Source: Callorhinchus milii (taxonomy: Eukaryota). From it: DNA of 64,000 bases. Within the stretch, counting starts at the first letter, position 1; every line of letters begins with the position of its first letter. A model generated the notes under the pieces. It worked only from the letters and a program-made list of their open reading frames with translations, was not told where the DNA came from and searched no databases. The position numbers and the translations under genes are program-made. Below are positions 33,901 to 45,993 of the stretch, one piece after another. The DNA lies in contig NW_024704742.1 of the NCBI RefSeq assembly GCF_018977255.1, positions 14,696,001 to 14,760,000 of the forward strand. The letters run 5' to 3'.

Positions 33901-36900
33901 CAGTCAATTCACTTTACTGTTGTTGTTTACTAGTGTTTACTTTGTTGTTGTTGTTTACAGTATATTCCGTGACACGCTTTGAGATGTCTAGAAGACATGA
34001 AAAGCACTATATCAAATGCTATTATTATTGCACCCATTTACATATTGCCAAAGATACACACACACTTACATAAATTACATTTTACGCAAGTGTGTGTGTA
34101 TTGTGGAACTAGAGGAAATGTTCTGCTTGGAGTGCAAGTGCACCTCAAAAATCTGACTCATTACTGATGCCTCATCAAACCCGAGCCAACCACCATTTCT
34201 GGCCATCACAACAGATTTGACAGCCAGAAATTGCACACAAATGCAAATTTTACAAGTTTGCTATATTAAGTACTGATGATGAAAAATTATCTTTATAAAA
34301 ATAATTTATATTTCACATTTTAATTCCTGAAATGATGAATGCATCTGGGGACTATAGGAACCCATACAAGTACAGGACAAATGCTATTTGTTTTTTCTTG
34401 AGTGCTGAAGTAGATGGCGGCCACTTTTGTATTAAAAATGTAATTCACTGCTGATAGTGTTAAGGAATTGTAACAACACCTGTTTCGGCAATTGAAAATA
34501 AAGATTGCTGAAAATAAGGAGATGCTATTTACTGGGAACCTGACTAGATTAACATCCTACACCAACTTCAGCAATAAGCTATCTAAAGTGCTCAACATTT
34601 AAAATTTAACACAAGCACATATGAGAATGGTTTATCAGATGAATGCACATAACTGCATCAGTAAGCTGTGCTATCCATGAAAAAGTAGAGGAACATTCCA
34701 TCCATTGGATGCTGACGTGAAAGGTGCTATATAAATGTAATTTGTTGTTGTTGCTATTACAATTCAGTTTTCAACTTTATTAATGAAGCAAACTACAGTG
34801 CAGGAAGAAAATCATGTCATTACTGTTCTCTTCTACTCTGGATCTCAAAGGACATTTTGTTTCAGAACATTGCAGTGTGATCAGTCATATTATTTCTCAC
34901 CAGTCATGCCATTTAAGCAGCTATTAAATCTATTTTTGAATATGACATTGGGTACTCATCATTCAATGAATTTTCATACCAGTGGCTTTGTGCAACATAT
35001 GTTGCTAAATGTGTTCTCATCTACAGCACAGAGGTACATGAGACCAAAGGAGGCAGTATATCCTGCTTTGATTATGCACAGAATAATTCATGTTAGAGAT
35101 TGAATACAAGGTAATCATCCACTTACAAATTTGAAATGACAACTAACACCAATGGGGCAATTATATCTGACTCACAAGATTAAATTGTTGCTTTCAATAA
35201 GCATTTTAGAAAGATACTGAGATGTTATTTCACCTCCTCTGGTACTTCAACAAATGATCTATAGGCATGTCAGATTCAAATCTCTACATGAAATGATTCA
35301 TCACTTCAATAGAAGATTAAAGCATTTTAGAGTTGCAGTTATTCAAACTAACAGAATATTTTCTGTTTATTTTTCATTAGGTGCATGGCAAGTCAAGAGT
35401 GGTTTGGAAAATTCTAAGTCGTGGGACCAGAGTGTTCAGAGACCTAACTTTCAGAGGTAATGCCTATGGTGAGGGTAAATCCTTTATAGGAGCAAGAAAA
35501 AAGCTTGAATAAAATTGTGCTCTTAAAAATTGTTACTAGCAAGAATTTGTTTTTCAATTGGTGTGTAAATTAGCTTTAATTAAAACCCAGTACAGTGGAG
35601 AGCTGATGATCCACGCTAATTAGGATTCTAGATGTGTTGAATGGTTGAGTTGAAAGTTGAATAGTTTACTGAGTAATAATGAGATTTAAGGTTCAGGTTC
35701 TTTTAATAAAGGGACCTGTTTTCTACCAGAAATCTTGTTTATTTTGATCTCTAAACTGAGATTACTTTTCAATTTTCCTTTAACAAATTATTAGAACTAC
35801 ATGGTGCAAAAAATACTTTTATTCCAAGATATCACATTATCTCCAGATTGATGCAGCTTTAAATGATTGGTGCGATAAACTAGTTACAGTAACTGCATTT
35901 TACTAATAGATTATCGTTAAACTACTGGCTTTGCACATCTTTTTTACTTCACAAAATAGTGTCAAAAATCCTATGAGCGGAAATTTTTATCCAATTCAAC
36001 AACAACAACAACAAGATTCCATTTATAGAGCGCCTTTCACGTCAGGAGGACGTCCCAAGGCGCTGCACAGTTGGGTCATGACCCGAGCAGGGGGGAAATG
36101 GTCAGGGTGAGGGGAGGGAAGGGAGGGAGAGAGGAGGGGGGAAATGGTCAGGGTGAGGGGAGGGAAGGGAGGGAGCGAGGAGGAGGAAGAGAGTCGAGAG
36201 GGGAGCTGAAGGCACGGTCAAAGAGAAAGGTTTTGAGACCGGCCTTGAAGGAGGAAAGGGAGGAAGCAAGGCGAAGGCACTGGGGGATGGAGTTCCAGAG
36301 CCTCGGGGCTGAGAGGCTGAAGGCCCGACCACCGATAGTAGGGCGGTTGGGGCGGGGGACGTGGAGCAGACCGGAGCCAGAGGAACGGAGGGTACGGGCA
36401 GGTAGGTAGGGGGATAGTAGGTTGGAGAGGTAGGAGGGAGCAAGGCCGTGAATGGCCTTGTAGGTGAGGATGAGGATCTTGAAATCAATCCTCTGGGGGA
36501 TGGGGAGCCAGTGGAGGCGAGCGAGGGTGGGAGTGATGTGGTCCCGAAGCCTGGTGCGGGACAGTACACGAGCTGCAGAGTTCTGAATGACCTGCAGCTT
36601 GTGGAGGGAGGTGGCGGGAAGGCCGGCGAGGAGAGAGTTCCCATAGTCCAGCCTTGAGGTGACAAAGGCGTGAACCAGGGTTTCAGCAGCGTGAGGGGTG
36701 AGGTAGTGCCGTAGTATGGCGATGTTCCGGAGGTGATGGAAGGCGGTGCCAGTTGTGGTGCGGATGTGAGGGAGAAAGGACAGCTCAGGGTCGAACAAAA
36801 CGCCGAGGTTCCTGACTGGCTTTGAGAGGTGGAGAGTGCAGCCTTGGATGCTGATGGTGTCAGCGCCTGAGGTGCGGAGGCGCTGACGTGAGCCAATCAG

Positions 36901-39900
36901 GAGGGCCTCGGTTTTTCGCACGTTGAGCTGAAGAAAGTTGTCTCTCGTCCAGGACTCGATGTCGGACAGGCAGGCTGTCAGGACATCGGTGGTCGTGGAG
37001 TTGAGAGTAGAGGAGGAAAGGTAGAGTTGGGTGTCATCCGCATACATGTGGAAGTTAACCCCATGTTTGCGGATGATGTCACCGAGGGGGAGCATATAGA
37101 GGGTGAAGAGGAGGGGACCGAGGACAGAGCCCTGAGGGACACCACATGAGACAGTACGGGGGGTGGAGGAGAAGCCATTCGTTGAGACGAAGTGAAGACG
37201 GTGGGAAAGGTAAGAGCTAAACCATTCAAGGACAGTGCCTTGAAGGTTGAGGTGGGAGGACAAGCGGTGGAGTAGGATAGCGTGGTCGACCGTATCGAAT
37301 GCTGCCGATAGGTCGAGGAGGACGAGGAGACAGAGGGAGCCCTGGTCACAGATAGTCAGGATATCATTGGTGACCTTGACCAGGGCAGTTTCTGTGCTAT
37401 GAGCAGCACGGAAACCTGACTGAAGGGGTTCAAAAAGAGAATGGGTGGAGAGGAAAGAGCGCAGTTGGGAGGCGACAACTCTTTCCAAGACCTTGGAGAG
37501 AAAGGGGAGGTTGGAGATGGGCCGGTAGCTTGATAGCTGCGACGCATCAAGGGAGGGTTTTTTCAGGGTGGGCGTGATGATGGCAGTTTTTAATGGAATG
37601 GGGACAGAGCCAGAGGAGAGGGACAGGTTTATGATGTCAGTGATGTGTGGGGCAAGAAAATGGAGCTGGGAGATAAGGAGTGGAGTGGGGATGGGGTCAA
37701 GGGAGCAGGTGGTTGGTTTTAGGGATAGGATGAGTTCAGTGACAGAGGGTGGGGAAACGGGTACGAAGGTGTGTAGGGGAGGATGGGTAGGAGTCGGAGT
37801 GTGGGAGGGAAGGGGTGGGTGGTGGGTGGAAGTTGGAGGGGAAGTGACCGCGGAGCGGATTCCCTTGATCTTGGATTCAAGGAAATCCAGCATCTCCTCG
37901 CAGTGAAGGTTGGAGGAGATGACCTGCGCGGGGTGGCGGGGGGACGGAGGAGTCGGGATGTGGTGGAAAACAGTAGCCTGGGGTTGTTCTTCGCCTCCAG
38001 GATTATCCTGGAGTAGAAGGACGACTTGGCCGAGGCTAGAGTGGAGCGGTAAATTTTGAGGAGGTCCAGCCAGATTTGTCGGTGGACCGTTAAGCCGGAT
38101 TTGACAAAGGTGCGCTCAGCAGCCCGCACCTGGCATTTCAGTGAGCGGAGGTGGGTGGTGTACCAGGGGGAGGAGCGGGAGTAGGAGACAGTGCGGGAAG
38201 TGATGGGGGCAAGAGTATCGAGTGTGGAGGAGAGGATATTGTGGAGGAGGGAGAGAGGAGAAGAGGGGTCGGTGAGGGTTGAAGGCCAGAGGGAGAGGAG
38301 TTCAGAGGACTCCAAGGCATCGGTTAGGGATTGTGGGGGTAACTTCTTCCAAGGGCGGTAGAAGATGGTGGTGGGTCTGGTGGAGGTGGGGAGGGGGGTG
38401 GAGGTGGTGAAGGAGATGAAGTAGTGGTCGGAGATGGCCTTGTCGGTAATAGTGACATCCGAGACACTGAGGCCCCGGGTGATCACCAAATCGAGTGGGT
38501 GGCCGTGACTGTGAGTGGGGGAGTTTATGTGTAGGGAGAGGTTGAGTGAGGAGAGCAGGGAAGAGAAGTCTGTGGAGATGGAGCAGGAGGGGGTGAAGTG
38601 TAGGTTAAAGTCGCCCAGGATGATGAGGCGATCAGAGGAGAGGCAAAGAGATGTGAGGAGTGTTGAAATGTCAGAGATGAAGGTGGGAGAGGTTTTAGGG
38701 GGCCGGTAGAGGAGGAGGATTTTAAGGGAGAGGAATGAGGGGTGGGAGAGGGTGAGGTGCTCGAAGGAGGGGAAAGAGCCAGAGGAGTAGGGGGATAGGG
38801 CAAGTGGTGTCCTTGAGATAAGGGCAACACCACCGCCACGGCGGTTGGGGCGGGGGATGTGGTGGGAGGTGTAGCCGGGTGGCGTGGCCTCCGTGAGGGG
38901 GAAGGTGTCGCCTGGGGTGAGCCACGTTTCTGTCAAGGCCATGATATCAACGTTCTCATCAAGGATGAGATCGTTGATGACCAGGGCCTTGTTGCAGAGG
39001 GAGCGGACATTTTGCAGTCCGATGTGGAGGGAGCGGTTGACAGAAGGGTGTGTGGGAGGGGAGGGGGGTCCAGGTTGTGAGGCAGGGGTGGGGGAGATGG
39101 GGATGAGGGAGGAGAGGTTGACTCCCCGGGTCTGTGTCCGGGGTGGCTGGCGAGAGTGGTGGGGAATGGGGCAGTCGGTGTGGCTGCTGCTGGACAGCCA
39201 ACGCCGAGTGCCGCGGTGAGCCCGGCGGAGGATTCCCAGACTGGAACAGAGGGAGGTTGTGGGAGGGTCAAGTGGGGATAGAAGACGAGAGGGACGGAGA
39301 GAGAGGAGGAGAGAGCGGGAGAGATGGAGAGGGGGGAGGGTTTGGGGGGAGAGAGGAGGGGGGTGGGAGGGAGGGGGTGAGGGGGCTCGGGTCAAAGCGG
39401 CAGCCATAGGGACCGGGAGCGAGCGGTCAGGTGGATGGCATTATCCCGCAGATTGGGGCATCGAACCCAACAGGACCATAGTGGGCTCTGATGTGAGCCC
39501 TGGGGGGGGGGGGGGGGCGCAGAGGGTTTTTTTTTTTTTTTTTTTTTTTGTGCGCGCGCACTCACCTGAAAACTAATCTATGACGTCGCAGTTCCCCGCT
39601 CCGCCCCCACACCTCCCTCCACTGCCTAGCTGCACTCGCTCCGGCGTCGAGTTTAAGTACCTGGGTCAGTAGGCCCAGGCTCCTCCCCGCGCTCTCCTGC
39701 TGCCGCTCCCCGACTGGCTGCACTCGCTCCGGCGTCGAGTTTAAGTACCTGGGTCAGTAGGCCCAGGCTCCTCCCCGCGCTCTCCTGCCGCCGCTCCCCG
39801 ACTGAAGACCGATTGAAGAATATTGTGGAAGTGTAATACTTAATTGATCAGAATATGAACAGCTACTAAATTAGAACAAGCTGTGTAAAATCAATCTTAT

Positions 39901-42011
39901 TTTAATGCTTGTTTTTAGATCACAGATTGGTGCAGAGAAGTTTGATAAAAGTCAACCATTGGAAAAAATTGGAAAAGGTGCACTTTCCCCTCAACCCAAG
40001 CGTGTGGTTTATGACTCGGCAGGGATGAGGGTACAGAATAGGCAATACAAGGATGATGAAAGCTCACCGCAACATCAGCTAAAGCAAACTTATACAGACC
40101 CAGCTATTCTAAGCTCCTCTGCAGATACCAGCATTAGGGATAGATTTGTGCCACCAGAACCTCATAAAACTTCAATTGGAGATGTTGAAAAACTTTCACT
40201 TGGTCCTTATCAACAAACTTCCAGCGTTCAAGCAAAATCAAGTTCTGCAGTTCCTTTGTTTCCTCCCCATTATCAGGATATGGAAATCGATGCACTAGAA
40301 TCACAGCAGGGATCTTCAGCCCATTTGAATCCAGGTTATCATTCACCTGAAAATCCCCAAATTAGACAACACCCTCCCTCTGGAGGAGCACAGTCACACC
40401 ACGTTTATGAAAACCGAGAGAACTTCCAGGAACCTGTTCATGAAGTAAGATCATCGCCACCACCTCTGCCTCCAAAGATGTATGCTCGGAGAGGCCAAAC
40501 CAATTTGAAGAATAACTTATTAAATACAAGACCACTACCTGAGCCAAGGGAAGAAATGGCAAATGCTAAAAAAATATTAGGTCAAAGGCGTGATGACAAT
40601 TTTGATCCCGTGTTTTCACATGATAGACAAACGAAAGCTGCGTCTGACAATTATCTAAAGCTTGAAACTGATGCTGCTTCATCAAGGCTATTTAGTGCCT
40701 GCACACCGGGACTACCTAATGATGTTGCCCCAACTACTTATTTTTCTGTGGATAGTTGCATGACTGACACGTATAGAGTCAAGTACCACGAGAGACCTAA
40801 ACTTTATTTTGCCGATATGAAAGCTAATGAATTCCCGCCGGGGGGGCATTCCTTTCAAGGTGAGTTGGATTTGAAAAAATATGAACCTGCTACTTATACT
40901 GTTGTGTGGCTTCCAGAACAATGCAATGGCACCAATGTGGTATCGGATTATTTTTATTTGGGTCATATGACATGGGTATGTTCCCATCACTTTCCTCTGA
41001 GCATTTTAGTTTAAATTTAAAACTGAAAATAGCAATGCGAAATAAATTCTGCTCCTACTAAATTCACCACTTTTGATGATAATAATAATAATCCTTGCAT
41101 TTATATAGCGCTTTTCATGTCTTCTAGATGTCTCAAAGCGCTTCACAGAATATGCTGTAAAGTGAATTGTCTGTATATTTTGTGGGCAAAACGCGGCAGC
41201 CAATTGCACACAGCGGTGTCCCACAAACGGTTATGGATTGAAGTGACCAAATTATTTTTTTGTTGAGGGATTATTATCAGGCATGTGAAGTAAGGAAACT
41301 TGCCCATAGTTTTGCCCTTTGATGACCAGGAATTGAAAATTCAGGGAGGAATCATTGCTAGGCTGCTATTAGGTGCTTCTTAATGTTACTGGAAATGGGC
41401 TTTGCATGGTTTTCTTGCTAATTTTGCAAGCAATGTCACATTTTAACACCACCATTTCAACAATTTTATTTTTAAATTGTGTTGTGTGATCCAGGTTAAC
41501 TGTTGAAATATTCTGTCTTTACGGTATCTCTTGTGTAAATTGTTGTGCAATTAATTACAAAAGAAAGTTGGTGGCTATTTGAAACAGATTTTCATTTTAC
41601 CTCTTTATTAAGTCAGAATCGGAGAAATTTTCAGCACAAAAGGAGACCACTCTTGTCAGTGCCCCGAAATTCCCCCTAATATTCCAAAGTCTTTGTAATG
41701 TTGCTGTAACTGAATCCAATACGGCATTAGGATACTAATTTTGAATTTGAAAGTTAGGAGTAAGAAGGGAAATCTGGTGGAATATTTACACAAAGTACTT
41801 CTGGAGTGATTTATTTGAAGGCAGATGAAGTAGATGGTATAAAAGTCTGTGTGACTTTGACTAAGTGATTAGCAGCTGTGATGTATTGCCTTATTGATGC
41901 TATTGATCATTTCACATTTTTTTTTAACTCTGAGCTGTTTTTCGTACAGGTTCAGTTGTAAATCCATCTCAAACGATGTACAGTCCTAGAAAAGGAACAC
42001 CCCACTTGTAG
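3847..42011 (+). CDS. USP53: Ubiquitin-specific peptidase 53, multi-exon gene model: 3847-3990, 11884-11976, 12606-12740, 14397-14510, 15241-15323, 15417-15522, 19454-19600, 20462-20611, 21909-22086, 22725-22892, 24177-24326, 26077-26770, 28537-28610, 35381-35456, 39919-40859, 41950-42011 (3315 nt, 1104 aa); alternative end at 43235
   Basis: Translated exons closely match recalled vertebrate USP53 ([154 protein letters not shown]). All introns are GT-AG and phases join without frameshift. Confidence 0.95.
4150..4625. mobile_element. Nested Deu-SINE pieces (+ copy interrupted by a - copy at ~4262-4540)
   Basis: Match to the SINE consensus in both orientations. Confidence 0.75.
4955..5790 (+). 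mobile_element. Two tandem L2 3' fragments
   Basis: ctctggaactcc, ccttcaag and tails gacgtgaaaggcg...ttgttgtt like the full L2. Confidence 0.78.
6689..7057 (+). mobile_element. Deu-SINE, long form
   Basis: tRNA head, internal tctgtttacc...gcttttcc segment, Deu core, (TTA)n tail. Confidence 0.85.
8980..9404. mobile_element. Tail-to-tail Deu-SINEs (+ 3' half 8980-9123; - long form 9124-9404)
   Basis: Match to the SINE consensus. Confidence 0.8.
10660..11046 (-). mobile_element. Deu-SINE, long form, with a ~45-bp CR1-type tail inserted at ~10889-10932
   Basis: SINE consensus interrupted by aatgggctgaatggcctccttctgtgctataagattctgtgatt. Confidence 0.8.
11884..11976 (+). CDS. USP53: USP53 coding exon 2
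   Basis: ttttgtag acceptor; [40 protein letters not shown]. Confidence 0.93.
12606..12740 (+). CDS. USP53: USP53 coding exon 3
   Basis: cttgcag acceptor; [54 protein letters not shown]. Confidence 0.95.
13402..13606 (+). mobile_element. Deu-SINE 3' half
   Basis: Core and tail match. Confidence 0.8.
14397..14510 (+). CDS. USP53: USP53 coding exon 4
   Basis: ccctcag acceptor; [47 protein letters not shown]. Confidence 0.94.
15241..15323 (+). CDS. USP53: USP53 coding exon 5
   Basis: gctgcag acceptor; [27 protein letters not shown](C); TG|GTAAGT, phase 2. Confidence 0.93.
15417..15522 (+). CDS. USP53: USP53 coding exon 6 (follows a 93-nt intron)
   Basis: aaatag acceptor; [44 protein letters not shown]. 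Confidence 0.93.
15690..16055 (-). mobile_element. Old L2 3' fragment
   Basis: Degenerate similarity to the L2 3' end ([12 protein letters not shown]). Confidence 0.6.
16767..17006. mobile_element. Degenerate Tigger/pogo-like MITE
   Basis: TA-CAGTGGAACCTTGATACA ... TGTATAATGACTTCACTG-TA imperfect terminal inverted repeats with TA ends. Confidence 0.5.
17935..18452 (-). mobile_element. Older SacSINE1-like Deu-SINE with a younger SINE tail inserted (18264-18375)
   Basis: ggggcttgaacccacaacctt head, catgggatc and ggtttaaggtctcatccgaag core. Confidence 0.65.
18470..18815 (-). mobile_element. CR1 reverse transcriptase fragment
   Basis: Minus strand reads [11 protein letters not shown] and [10 protein letters not shown] (CR1 KFADDTKLGG motif). 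Confidence 0.7.
19454..19600 (+). CDS. USP53: USP53 coding exon 7
   Basis: tttcag acceptor; [58 protein letters not shown]. Confidence 0.95.
20462..20611 (+). CDS. USP53: USP53 coding exon 8 (His/Asp box)
   Basis: tttaaag acceptor; [59 protein letters not shown]. Confidence 0.94.
21909..22086 (+). CDS. USP53: USP53 coding exon 9
   Basis: ctgatag acceptor; [41 protein letters not shown]...; CAG|GTGAGT, phase 1. Confidence 0.93.
22725..22892 (+). CDS. USP53: USP53 coding exon 10
   Basis: ttaacag acceptor; [22 protein letters not shown]...GRGL; A|GTAAGT; phase 1-1, open frame; ENG motif as in human. Confidence 0.82.
23706..24105 (+). mobile_element. Older SacSINE1-like Deu-SINE
   Basis: gtcagcttggtttagttgatggcaca head; ggctgtttgtgggataacattgcatgcaaactggctgct Deu core. 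Confidence 0.6.
24177..24326 (+). CDS. USP53: USP53 coding exon 11
   Basis: tttacag acceptor; [57 protein letters not shown]; phase 1-1; weak similarity to the recalled human segment. Confidence 0.8.
25674..26003 (-). mobile_element. Deu-SINE, long form
   Basis: Head, internal segment, core and tail match. Confidence 0.82.
26077..26770 (+). CDS. USP53: USP53 coding exon 12 (large)
   Basis: ccctcag acceptor; contains [63 protein letters not shown], phase 2. Confidence 0.93.
27690..28055 (-). mobile_element. CR1 3' fragment
   Basis: Minus strand gaacttcttcactcaaagggtggtgaatgtatggaactctctacccc ([14 protein letters not shown]). Confidence 0.75.
28067..28434 (+). mobile_element. Deu-SINE, long form, full length
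   Basis: Complete head, internal segment, core and tail. Confidence 0.88.
28537..28610 (+). CDS. USP53: USP53 coding exon 13 (predicted)
   Basis: attccag acceptor; (R)[24 protein letters not shown](G); G|GTAAAA; supplies the phase 2 to 1 bridge needed between exons 12 and 14. Confidence 0.65.
32630..33178 (+). mobile_element. 5'-truncated young L2
   Basis: [44 protein letters not shown] nearly identical to the C-terminus of the full L2; (TTG)n tail. Confidence 0.92.
33178..33470 (+). mobile_element. Older SacSINE1-like Deu-SINE
   Basis: ctcacctctgggtcaaaaggttgtgggttcaagccccac head. Confidence 0.65.
33770..34030 (+). mobile_element. Deu-SINE 3' part
   Basis: Core and tail match. Confidence 0.75.
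35381..35456 (+). CDS. USP53: USP53 coding exon 14 (predicted)
   Basis: long polypyrimidine tract ending cattag; [25 protein letters not shown](R); AG|GTAATG; phase 1 to 2 fits exon 15. Confidence 0.68.
35997..39804 (-). mobile_element. Near full-length L2-clade LINE (single ORF: APE endonuclease + reverse transcriptase) in USP53 intron 14, one frameshift
   Basis: ORF 37719-39407 has APE motifs ([37 protein letters not shown]); ORF 36148-37893 has RT motifs ([51 protein letters not shown]) and L2 C-terminal LHWLP; 3' hairpin plus (TTG)n tail. Confidence 0.95.
39629..39804. repeat. Two tandem 88-bp GC-rich monomers at the 5' end of the L2 element
   Basis: 39629-39716 and 39717-39804 are identical apart from tgctgcc vs tgccgcc. 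Confidence 0.9.
39919..40859 (+). CDS. USP53: USP53 coding exon 15 (large C-terminal exon; frame stays open to TAA at 41014 if unspliced)
   Basis: tttttag acceptor; contains SPPPLPPK and [24 protein letters not shown]; strong donor AAG|GTGAGT at 40859/40860. Confidence 0.88.
41078..41320 (-). mobile_element. Deu-SINE, short form, head truncated
   Basis: Match to the SINE consensus. Confidence 0.82.
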
Positions 42012-42036
42012 CTAGGACTGCAAAAACATGAAACAG
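41950..42036 (+). CDS. USP53: USP53 predicted exon 16 (87 nt, in-frame TAG at 42009-42011)
   Basis: gtttttcgtacag acceptor; [20 protein letters not shown]; donor CAG|GTATTT at 42036. Confidence 0.55.
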
Positions 42037-43155
42037 GTATTTACCAACAATTGAAGCATAATTGCATAAATTTGGGTAACTACTATGGAAGATGGTAAAC
42101 ATGATGTACATGTTTCAATTCATGACTACCATTCCTTTCAGTTACAGGAGAAGAGTTTTAAACACCTTCCTTGAACAAGTGGCCCAGTGATTTGTGGGGA
42201 TAGGGTAGAGGCAAATTGTTCACTTTTAGACGTGAAAACTGTCTGAGATTGACCTTTTTGGGTCTGTGTTCAGAAGCTTTCTTGTCCAACTACTTCTGTG
42301 ATATCCTGCAGTTCAACTCCCCCATTCACACTTTTTGCTCTACACTCAGGCTTGCTTCACATCCCCCACTCCCCCTCCCCTGCGTACTTTCTCCTCCCCC
42401 AACCCCACTCCAGAAGCTGGTCATTTTGGGTTATTTTTAATGGAAACTTACTGGGAAAGTGACTATATTTTGCAAGGTACAGTAATTTTTTAAAAAACTG
42501 CTCCATGTGCACAGAACGATGCACAACCAAATCATTAGAATAGTGTGGGAATGCTTCCACTCTCCATTATACATTTGCAACACAAGGATAAGCCTGTGCT
42601 GCTCTAGTCTTCTAAAGGTCAGTTGAGGAGCAGCTTTAGCCTGAGAGTACTGCTCATGTTGTTGGTGGTGGGCGATAGGGTAATGTTAAATTAAACTTTC
42701 AGAAAAGCCCCAAAATTTGAAAATCATGTGTCTAAATTGCAGTGCAGCACTAATTTTTGCATCAGGCTTTAAAACCTTGCTGCTGTAAATGGCAGTGAGT
42801 TAGCATTGGGAACATTTTGTAATGTGGCTGTCAGAATTTTCTCTTTTCCACATTTTTTAAGGAGAAATGTGGGACCTAAAAATGAGTACTTCTGTTTTAT
42901 TTATAGCACCTCATTATCAAACGATGTAAATATCAAACTCACTGTTCCAAAGCTTTATATTTATGTAGGTCCTAATTGAGCAGTGTGAATATATTTGAAG
43001 TTGTAATATTTGTTTTAGCCTAAGTTACTGCTTTGATATGTTTCTGACGTCCTGACTTTGAGGATAGACTGGGTTTATTCCATGGTGGCTTAGGTTTTCA
43101 TTGTTTTAAATGGGTTAGGTCCTTCTGAGTTACACAATTGACCTTTTGTTTTCAG

Positions 43156-43235
43156 ATGCAAACCATGGATCAGGCTTGTCTGCACCAGTGATGTATCAAC
43201 AACCTGAAAAGTTACGAAGTGCAAGAAACTATTAA
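43156..43235 (+). CDS. USP53: USP53 predicted terminal exon, coding part (DANHGSGLSAPVMYQQPEKLRSARNY*), followed by AT-rich 3' UTR
   Basis: branch-like ttgac plus cttttgttttcag acceptor; open in phase 1 matching the donors of exons 15 and 16; followed by ~2.8 kb largely TE-free AT-rich sequence. Confidence 0.55.
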
Positions 43236-45993
43236 CAAAACTGTTTGGTCATTATGGAGATTGGGCCTACCTTCAACAATAAACTAGTTTTAAAAAGACT
43301 GGATAGTTGAATAACCAAAGGCAAGAGAAAAACTGCACAAAAACCTTCCGAAGACATTGGGTAAAGTTTCAGAAATTGGCCAATAGAGGGCAGCTACCAG
43401 TCGGGATGGCAGGCAGTGAAAATAAATGTATTTATTTGTTCCTTGTCACAGATACTGTAAATAGTGAAGATATGCAACTATTTAAAAAACAGACAAGAAC
43501 TGTTTATATTGTACACTTTAAGCTCCAGATTTATAACTTTCTAACTTTGTATAAACTGTAATTTTGGTCTTTATATGAAAGTATTTTCAAGGTTTCCTGT
43601 CTTTGATCCTATGCCACTAATTTACAAGTTAGTAAACACTATGCTACTAATTCACTTGTGGTTAAATCCTAAGAAAAAGTTACTATAAAATACACCAGTA
43701 GCAATTTCAGAGTTTCAGATAAGTACCTTATTTGTTTACTATAAAGTATTTTTTTACTATTTTAATGTATGGACTTTAAAAATCAATTGATTGCCATAAG
43801 GAGTATAGGTATTGCCTAAAATTTTCATAAAAGAAAAACTTATTAGTTACAAATATCATCCAAGTTTAATTTAGAAGGGAAAAACACTAGTGATTTATCT
43901 TCAAAGCAGTATAGAAAGCAATATTTTTGACAATTGTGGTTTATCGATATTTTGTAATCCTGAAAAAAAGAAGCCTCCTTTGCAATAAACCAGAATGTTA
44001 ATTGTGAACAGTATAATGTAATTCAGAGTGGAGAATCCAAATCTCCCAATATCACGTTTGCCTTTAAAATGGTGCCATTTCGAAAAATTTGTATGAAGTG
44101 ATTCTATTATCGATGAATTGAATTAGCAGAAAGCTCAGCCACCCATAACTAAAAATGATTCACAGGAAGTCTCAATGAGAATGTTTAAGAAGTTAATGCA
44201 GATTAAGTTAGATTGTCTTTCCAGGACCACCAAGCTCTCAAAAACACTAAACCCACTAAAACATAACTTTTGTTAATCTCAAAAATTACTTCCTTTCCAA
44301 TATTCTAGGGAAAATATTTTTGTATTAACACTTATGAAACGAAAATTATTCTGTGTAGGCAGTAGAAACATTTGGAGCTTTCTCTGATGATAGCCAGTAG
44401 GTAAAGGCAATATGAAGTGCAGCATTAGGCAATCCAACCGTGTACCACAAGTACTAAAACTGATCAGAATTGGAAATTTAAATTCCGTCTTCCAGCAACT
44501 AATCTAATACTCTCAGCCAGAGTATTATCATGTGACCTCAGTGTCCCTATATTAGGTAGGGGGAATTCAACCATGGTTCCAGCTCCTAATTGCTACCAAT
44601 AGACAAACCTCTGCTGGAATGTGTGGATGTCTGGTAAGGAGTGGATTAGGTTTGGCTGTGGAGCCCCCCAAATCGAACTGTCTGCTAGCATTCACTAAAG
44701 TGATGACCATTTGGACAAGGTACCAAGTGTGTCCATGGAACTGCCCCAAGTAGGAGTCGACTCTTTCAGAAAAACATGAAAGAGAATTTTCTGAGGTACT
44801 GTAATTTAAGAAAAAAATGAACAATTAATTTGTAGGGACATTTAATCTAAGTTTTTATACGTTTTTCCCCCATGTGAATTTTTTTTTTTGGTGGATCTCA
44901 AATAATTGTTCATATAAAAGTTTTTTTCAGCTTCCAGGAGATGCGCACATCAATCACAGCCCTAACTATAAACACAAATTATGCGCTCTGAGGTGACTTC
45001 TGACCTCTGTGATGCCAAGTATTCCATTTTGTTCCAGAGTTGCTTGTAGTTAACGATCAGAGAATGAAGGTGCTTTAGCATTGTGCTGTGAATTTTTGGT
45101 ATTCTATTCTACCTTTACCTGTTATACCTTTTATAATGGGTATATAACACAATATTGTTTTCCTGAGATTTTTTCCATTGAATTTACCCACATCACTTTT
45201 TTCCCCCCTCTACCCTTTTTTTTTTAACATGAAAATTAAACTCTGATTAAATAGTTTATTTTGTGGATAAAAAGACATCCATGGTCCTTATACATGTATT
45301 TCCCTATTCTCCCAACAAAATATTATTTACCTTATATAGACAAAGCAATGTTTTCTTGGATATCTGTTTGAAATATTTACCTTAAATTGTCATGTGGATG
45401 GCATAAGAGTTTGCATTGTGAGAGCAGTTTTGACATTTTTGTCAAAATAGATTTTTTTCTATTTGCTGGCTTTACAGCAAAAATTGCATTGCCATTAATG
45501 GCTGCACCATCTTTAGAACTGTCATTCAATTGTGAATGTAAAGAGGATTTGTATCTGTTTAACTAACTGAACCTTGCCCTAAACATTAATCTTGTGCTGC
45601 CATCTAAACTTTAATTTATGCAACAGATTTCTGATGTACCATTTTATAATTTTAACTACTTATAGAAATATCTAAAATGATGGCCTTAAGAATTTAAATA
45701 TAATTTGTAATAAATTCATGCCATAATTACAAATATACTGTTAAAATTTCTACACTTGACATTAATTTATGCAGTTAATAGAACAGTCAAACCTAAGGAC
45801 ATTTAAAGACCAAATTGTGACTGATACTAAGTGCCTATTTATTTTTCTATGTAAAAATGAGCAAATATTTGTAACACACTGATTTATGCTTTGGATACAT
45901 ATTTTGAGAAATATATTTACATATATGTATAAAAAGGTTTCCATTTACGTGCATTAACATTTTTCCTAGCAGCAAATAAGTATGAAGAGTTTA

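Follow-up and report, generated by a model that had tools for sequence, protein, structure and literature searches.

An ordinary, conserved stop codon in an alternatively spliced tail exon probably underlies a readthrough-like 3' end of USP53 in Callorhinchus milii

We studied the 3' end of the USP53 gene of Callorhinchus milii, which lies in a 64,000-nucleotide stretch of contig NW_024704742.1 (the window; all positions given here are counted along it). In this region an 87-nt exon carries a TAG stop codon that is directly followed by CTAG, and the reading frame remains open across the next splice junction. Such an arrangement resembles a candidate for programmed stop-codon readthrough. In our assessment, it is probably an ordinary and already annotated USP53 3' end, in which a conserved stop codon resides in an alternatively spliced tail exon of a length divisible by three and happens to stand in a leak-prone context. 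The cassette exon encodes a conserved 20-residue tail with a normal TAG stop, and the mRNA is spliced 25 nt past this stop, over an 1119-nt intron in the 3' untranslated region (3'UTR), to a long terminal exon. The downstream frame would be open for two ordinary reasons, namely an unremarkable run length and a cassette length divisible by three, with a skipped isoform that is read in the same frame. Most likely the CTAG stands there by chance, though it may have been kept as part of a 9-bp hairpin in the exon, to whose 3' arm it belongs. It may permit a small incidental leak, at about the 1% level or below as extrapolated from mammalian reporter data, that bears no sign of selection or function.

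The gene in the window is Callorhinchus milii USP53 (Ensembl name usp53b), as an earlier sequence-only reading of this DNA had proposed. Its large coding exon was 100% identical to the C. milii protein with UniRef accession A0A4W3GQQ3. A protein search with this exon gave 153 matches among 1826 candidates (the best 120 of the 153 were listed), and the next matches were shark and ray proteins named 'inactive ubiquitin carboxyl-terminal hydrolase 53-like', with 35-44% identity, followed by tetrapod USP53. We take USP53 to be a tight-junction-associated pseudo-deubiquitinase. The 90% identity cluster of the Callorhinchus protein has four members, which differ in their ends. NCBI protein XP_007889687.1 (1104 residues, the length predicted from sequence alone) ends with ...GTPHL at the TAG at 42009-42011, and the Ensembl-derived A0A4W3GSC1 has the same C-terminus. 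In A0A4W3GQQ3, an Ensembl/UniProt model, the 87-nt exon is skipped and the protein ends with ...SFQDANHGSGLSAPVMYQQPEKLRSARNY. The fourth member is a 333-residue N-terminal fragment named 'ubiquitin specific peptidase 53b'. Both the 1104-residue product and its TAG are therefore present in existing annotation. Within the 991-Mb assembly, the exon and the C-terminal motif each occur once, and no paralog that could serve for internal comparison was found.

The relevant features all lie on the plus strand. The large coding exon, third from last, spans 39919-40859; it is preceded by an acceptor AG at 39917-39918, has an open frame and ends with ...GGHSFQ plus one base, in phase 1. It is followed by a GT..AG intron of 1090 nt (40860-41949) and by the cassette exon at 41950-42036, which is bounded by an acceptor AG at 41948-41949 and a donor GT at 42037-42038. 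This exon is 87 nt long, a multiple of three with phase 1 on both sides, and consists of the codons for the 20-residue C-terminal tail, the canonical stop of USP53 (TAG at 42009-42011) and 25 nt of 3'UTR. The CTAG directly 3' of the stop occupies 42012-42015, within CTAGGA at 42012-42017, and corresponds to the leaky stop_CUAG context of vertebrates (Loughran 2014, 2018). A second GT..AG intron of 1119 nt (42037-43155) lies in the 3'UTR of the exon-included mRNA. The terminal exon starts at 43156, after an acceptor AG at 43154-43155, and its first part (43156-43235) is 3'UTR in the main mRNA. When translated, it gives a split Asp codon, then ANHGSGLSAPVMYQQPEKLRSARNY, then a TAA at 43233-43235. 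This (D)ANHGSGLSAPVMYQQPEKLRSARNY stretch is coding in the annotated exon-skipped isoform and would equally form the tail of a hypothetical readthrough product. The remainder of the 3'UTR extends over 43236-44300 and beyond.

To define splicing and the stop codon at the RNA level, we compared Logan contigs of four runs from two studies with the assembly over positions 39800-44300. None of the runs is on record as RNA, and their kind was guessed as such; their GT..AG joints show that spliced RNA was sequenced. Contigs from the four runs span the large exon (39917-40857/61), and both the joint 40859|41950, which skips the 1090-nt intron, and the joint 42036|43156, which removes the 3'UTR intron, were present in four of four runs. 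All three exons were crossed by one contig of run X3 (1757 nt) and by one of run X5 (4384 nt). Between 41948 and 42036 the RNA contigs of the four runs contained no letter differing from the assembly; because the TAG is read identically in all of them, a base-call error is excluded. Further downstream, contigs were unbroken over 43153-44300 in the four runs, and one contig of run X1 continued for a further ~1.8 kb. Neither single-nucleotide polymorphisms (SNPs) nor indels separated the assembly from the RNA contigs within 42012-43393. The 3'UTR interval 43394-43860 held 7 substitutions and 5 indels of 1-2 nt. Low-depth contigs that extend into the two introns appear to stem from pre-mRNA that had yet to be spliced.

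These data bear out the structural part of the sequence-only reading. The 87-nt exon, its TAG-CTAG and the frame running open into the terminal exon were found at exactly the positions it gave, and the two junctions that it had asked to be checked are both used in RNA. Its 1139-residue readthrough product also agrees with our count, since 34 in-frame codons separate the TAG from the TAA on the spliced sequence (1104 + 1 + 34 = 1139). The last junction (42036|43156), now confirmed in RNA, lies 25 nt downstream of the TAG. A stop codon less than 50-55 nt upstream of the last exon-exon junction leaves an mRNA insensitive to nonsense-mediated decay (NMD). The exon-included mRNA should therefore not be an NMD target, as had been anticipated.

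Comparison with other cartilaginous fishes indicated that the stop is old. We read the C-termini of 46 elasmobranch sequences, comprising search representatives and cluster members. Eighteen of them, from nine shark genera (Heptranchias, Pristiophorus, Heterodontus, Cetorhinus, Carcharodon, Stegostoma, Rhincodon, Chiloscyllium and Hemiscyllium), end with ...FQ-GSSVNTSQMMHSPRKGNSH[S/L/F] or a close variant, which is a tail of 20 residues and thus of the length found in Callorhinchus. The identical tail length places the stop at the same codon in sharks and Callorhinchus, and the position of the stop is therefore conserved at the protein level. Another 15 sequences end with ...FQG[Y/N]G or ...FQGD (Carcharodon X3, Cetorhinus X3, Pristis, Scyliorhinus canicula, Amblyraja, Leucoraja, three Logan transcripts and Mustelus), and four, from myliobatiform rays, end with ...ANES[V/E]W. 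Other short ends were found in Scyliorhinus torazame (two sequences), Rhinoraja (one) and Narcine (one); the remainder consisted of four Logan open reading frames running into the intron and one unrelated fragment. In both Carcharodon and Cetorhinus, isoform X3 is exactly 17 residues shorter than X1, as expected if the tail exon is skipped (20 minus 3). This exon thus behaves as a cassette. Since sharks and Callorhinchus share the tail end, the tail exon with its own stop predates the split between holocephalans and elasmobranchs, and the TAG is, judging from these protein ends, the normal and anciently conserved stop of USP53. In the databases, both exon-included and exon-skipped USP53 C-termini occur in cartilaginous fishes (P0002, P0122 and P0123 from Callorhinchus, of which P0002 is A0A4W3GQQ3; P0128/P0130 and P0135/P0133 from lamniform sharks). 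Batoid annotations are without the 20-residue tail, which suggests that it was lost or left unannotated in this group. No further holocephalan proteins were found: after Callorhinchus, the large-exon search gave only sharks and rays among the best 120 of 153 matches listed, and no other holocephalan occurred among the 15 matches of the tail region or the 18 near-length matches, which are all tetrapod-like.

The openness of the downstream frame can be accounted for in ordinary terms. A run of 34 open codons is unremarkable and constitutes weak evidence, given that 12-14% of stop triplets have a run of this length or longer behind them, whether counted in the local 3'UTR, in the two introns or across the whole window. 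In addition, the 87-nt exon has the same phase (1) at either end, so its skipping lets the terminal exon be read in the very frame that readthrough would use. This leaves only eight and a third codons, those between the TAG and the donor, whose openness has no other cause. The long extension also appears unconserved across cartilaginous fishes. Elasmobranch short-tail isoforms have their stop 2-3 residues into the tail; provided that the terminal exon is orthologous and the cassette a multiple of three, an elasmobranch readthrough extension would comprise about 11 residues that are unrelated to the 26-residue tail of Callorhinchus. When the final 60 residues of the skipped model served as the query, its tail was recovered in that model only (one of 15 matches), and comparison of this tail with those of tetrapod USP53 gave no significant similarity (p 0.57-0.99).

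Two further relationships among the tails were considered and set aside. For the canonical tails as homologues of tetrapod USP53 C-termini, p-values ranged from 0.03 to 0.99, and we claim no homology. BLAST extensions prompted a test of whether the terminal-exon tail arose from the cassette-exon tail by duplication and later diverged. Such an exon duplication was unsupported by shuffle tests: p was 0.71 against the species' own tail, ranged over 0.03-0.46 against the tails of sharks, with 0.044 when their scores were summed, and was 0.23 for the nucleotide sequences.

In mammals, a CTAG directly after a stop does raise leakage. In two reports (Loughran 2014, PMC4132726; Loughran 2018, PMC5868278), efficient readthrough is described at UGA_CUAG in OPRL1, OPRK1, AQP4 and MAPK10, with UGA-CUA alone giving ~1.5% readthrough. 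The same reports count 23 human UGA_CUAG genes against 39 expected, and only 4 of these 23 carry a coding signature downstream of the stop. When the OPRL1 stop was changed from UGA to UAG, readthrough was reported to drop ~3-fold (PMC4132726). CTAG was also under-represented in our DNA (0.0016 per position versus 0.0036 expected). A stop followed by CTAG would be rare for any one gene and yet expected in tens of genes per genome. The motif by itself is no sign of a selected extension.

RNA folding was examined on both sides of the stop. In the spliced RNA, no unusual structure was detected 3' of the stop (z +0.88, -0.3 and +0.56 for 60, 100 and 150 nt). The 87-nt exon itself contains a perfect inverted repeat of 9 bp (CAGTCCTAG at 41981-41989 and CTAGGACTG at 42012-42020, plus strand, 100% complementary), whose 22-nt loop contains the stop and whose 3' arm includes the CTAG. 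The exon fold has a minimum free energy of -19.3 kcal/mol (z -2.78), and 3 of 200 shuffles folded as well. A comparable repeat occurred in 107 of 20000 shuffles (0.5%) and in 50 of 2204 window tiles of 87 nt (2.3%), and the observation of the repeat was post hoc. When the stop is in the A site, the dimensions of the ribosome place the 3' arm of the hairpin within it and the 5' arm just behind it. These positions rule out that the hairpin works as a classical downstream stimulator. It could play a part in cassette splicing, or be due to chance.

Several points weigh against treating this 3' end as entirely ordinary. CTAG follows only 0-0.3% of stop triplets in the window. The mammalian reporter data (Loughran 2018, PMC5868278) give 1.3-6.7% readthrough in human cells for all 17 further human UGA_CUAG contexts tested, as compared to 0.7% for UGA_C. 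Moreover, CTAGGA matches five of the six bases of CUAGGC in OPRL1, the most efficient case. Some leak at UAG_CUAG is accordingly likely, and its size, as extrapolated from mammalian reporter data, is likely to be roughly 0.5-2%; selection on such a leak is conceivable. As to the skipped isoform, the joint 40859|43156 was absent among the 15 of 26 contig joints listed, although contigs drop rare variants, and in Callorhinchus this isoform is known only from annotation. Lastly, the early closure of the elasmobranch frame assumes that both isoforms share a common terminal exon and that the cassette is a multiple of three.

One alternative keeps the terminal-exon frame as coding, but through exon skipping only. 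USP53 would then have two mutually exclusive tails, of 20 and 26 residues, and the CTAG and hairpin would serve to regulate splicing of the cassette. We consider this possible, though rather unlikely. It draws on A0A4W3GQQ3, which skips the exon in frame, on the NCBI annotation of both forms in Carcharodon and Cetorhinus, on the length and equal phases of the exon, and on the unusually stable exon fold around the stop. It has to contend with the skip joint missing among the 15 of 26 joints listed for the four runs, with the post hoc nature of the hairpin observation and with the 26-residue tail being found in no other species among the 15 matches, its elasmobranch counterpart being 2-3 residues long. 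A literature search for alternative splicing, isoforms or the C-terminus of USP53 returned, by title and abstract, no paper on this tail exon.

Programmed and functional readthrough was the central proposal of the sequence-only reading, and we now regard it as improbable. Here a near-cognate tRNA would decode UAG-CUAG in a selected fraction of ribosomes, giving a 1139-residue USP53 with a 35-residue extension that has its own role. The immediately adjacent CTAG speaks for it, as do the activity of the motif in each of the 17 human UGA_CUAG contexts, its higher activity in OPRL1 and the remaining activity of UAG there (about one third of that of UGA), the frame that is open for 34 codons through the junction, and the proximity of the stop to the last junction, by which the mRNA would be stable and reached by ribosomes. 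In addition, there was no polymorphism in the 105-nt extension in the four runs, where about one was expected at the 3'UTR rate. Against this, the stop is UAG, while the validated vertebrate CUAG cases in the two reports are all UGA. An open frame of this length is expected by chance at the frequency given above, the elasmobranch skipped isoforms imply a closed terminal-exon frame, and the tail was seen in the Callorhinchus model alone. By eye, no ending resembling a type 1 peroxisomal targeting signal (PTS1) or a class I PDZ ligand was recognised. The lack of a stimulatory structure 3' of the stop and the batoid annotations without the canonical tail, which suggest a loose constraint on the C-terminus, likewise speak against readthrough. 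A search of the literature for USP53 readthrough found no paper by title or abstract. Meaningful readthrough thus finds no backing beyond the CTAG context, in which UAG is the weaker stop, and the open frame is explained by chance together with the skipped isoform. The sequence-only reading itself had named an unconserved downstream frame as telling against readthrough. This was found only indirectly, from the elasmobranch frame that appears to close after 2-3 terminal-exon codons, and to that extent it counts against the proposal.

Both routes might also operate together, which we consider a slim prospect: an exon of a length divisible by three could give three C-termini, namely the 20-residue tail, the 26-residue tail by skipping and both in tandem by readthrough, and the hairpin might tune splicing or termination. 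The alternatives named by the sequence-only reading, a recent nonsense change or a base-call error, are refuted, and so is a faulty assembly of a codon that is normally sense in a protein that truly continues into the terminal exon, since the RNA contigs of four runs from two studies contain no differing letter, the NCBI and Ensembl models end at the TAG, and 18 shark proteins from nine genera end at the same position of the tail.

Two repetitive elements were seen in introns of the gene. The 1090-nt intron contains a very high-copy interspersed repeat at ~41008-41309, where the summed contig depth reached ~10^5 in all four runs and many short joints and loose ends occurred. The intron upstream of the large exon contains a retroelement of the long interspersed nuclear element (LINE) type on the minus strand (36148-39440), which has a 573-residue frame with an Exo_endo_phos endonuclease domain and an overlapping 655-residue frame with an RVT_1 reverse transcriptase domain, the two domains lying in different frames.

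An ordinary 3' end with a conserved stop has implications for how such loci are read. The combination of a stop, a CTAG and an open frame resembles programmed readthrough, yet the stop at this locus is long-conserved and normal, which provides a calibration for similar candidates. Exons of a length divisible by three that carry a stop and are followed closely by a 3'UTR intron will regularly mimic readthrough candidates in scans of sequence alone. A leak that proved real and selected would be the first case with UAG in the CUAG class and the first in a cartilaginous fish, thereby widening this class to chondrichthyans, and would add a third C-terminal form to USP53.

Among known systems, the closest in stop context are the stop_CUAG readthrough genes (OPRL1, OPRK1, AQP4 and MAPK10; MDH1, LDHB and VDR), which likewise have CUAG immediately 3' of the stop and an in-frame extension; with OPRL1, Callorhinchus USP53 shares the first five post-stop bases, CUAGG. 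It differs from them in its UAG, which is ~3-fold weaker in the OPRL1 context, whereas the validated cases in the two reports use UGA. According to the same reports, the motif of the validated cases is conserved throughout vertebrates, with a downstream coding signature in four of them, whereas the Callorhinchus extension appears unconserved, and no targeting signal is recognisable in its tail. A further likeness is found in the USP53-like X1 and X3 isoforms of Carcharodon carcharias and Cetorhinus maximus. In these sharks, a homologous exon encodes a 20-residue tail and supplies a stop of its own at the matching position, and there is also a shorter isoform without the tail, where the gap in length equals the difference between the tails; Callorhinchus has models of both kinds. 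The skipped form of Callorhinchus differs in reading 26 terminal-exon codons as compared to 2-3 in the sharks, and in its skip junction, which is absent among the contig joints listed. Finally, the exon-included mRNA resembles other NMD-insensitive mRNAs with a 3'UTR intron, in which the stop lies less than 50-55 nt from the last junction: in Callorhinchus the stop lies 25 nt upstream of an RNA-confirmed junction, and insensitivity to NMD is predicted for this mRNA as well.

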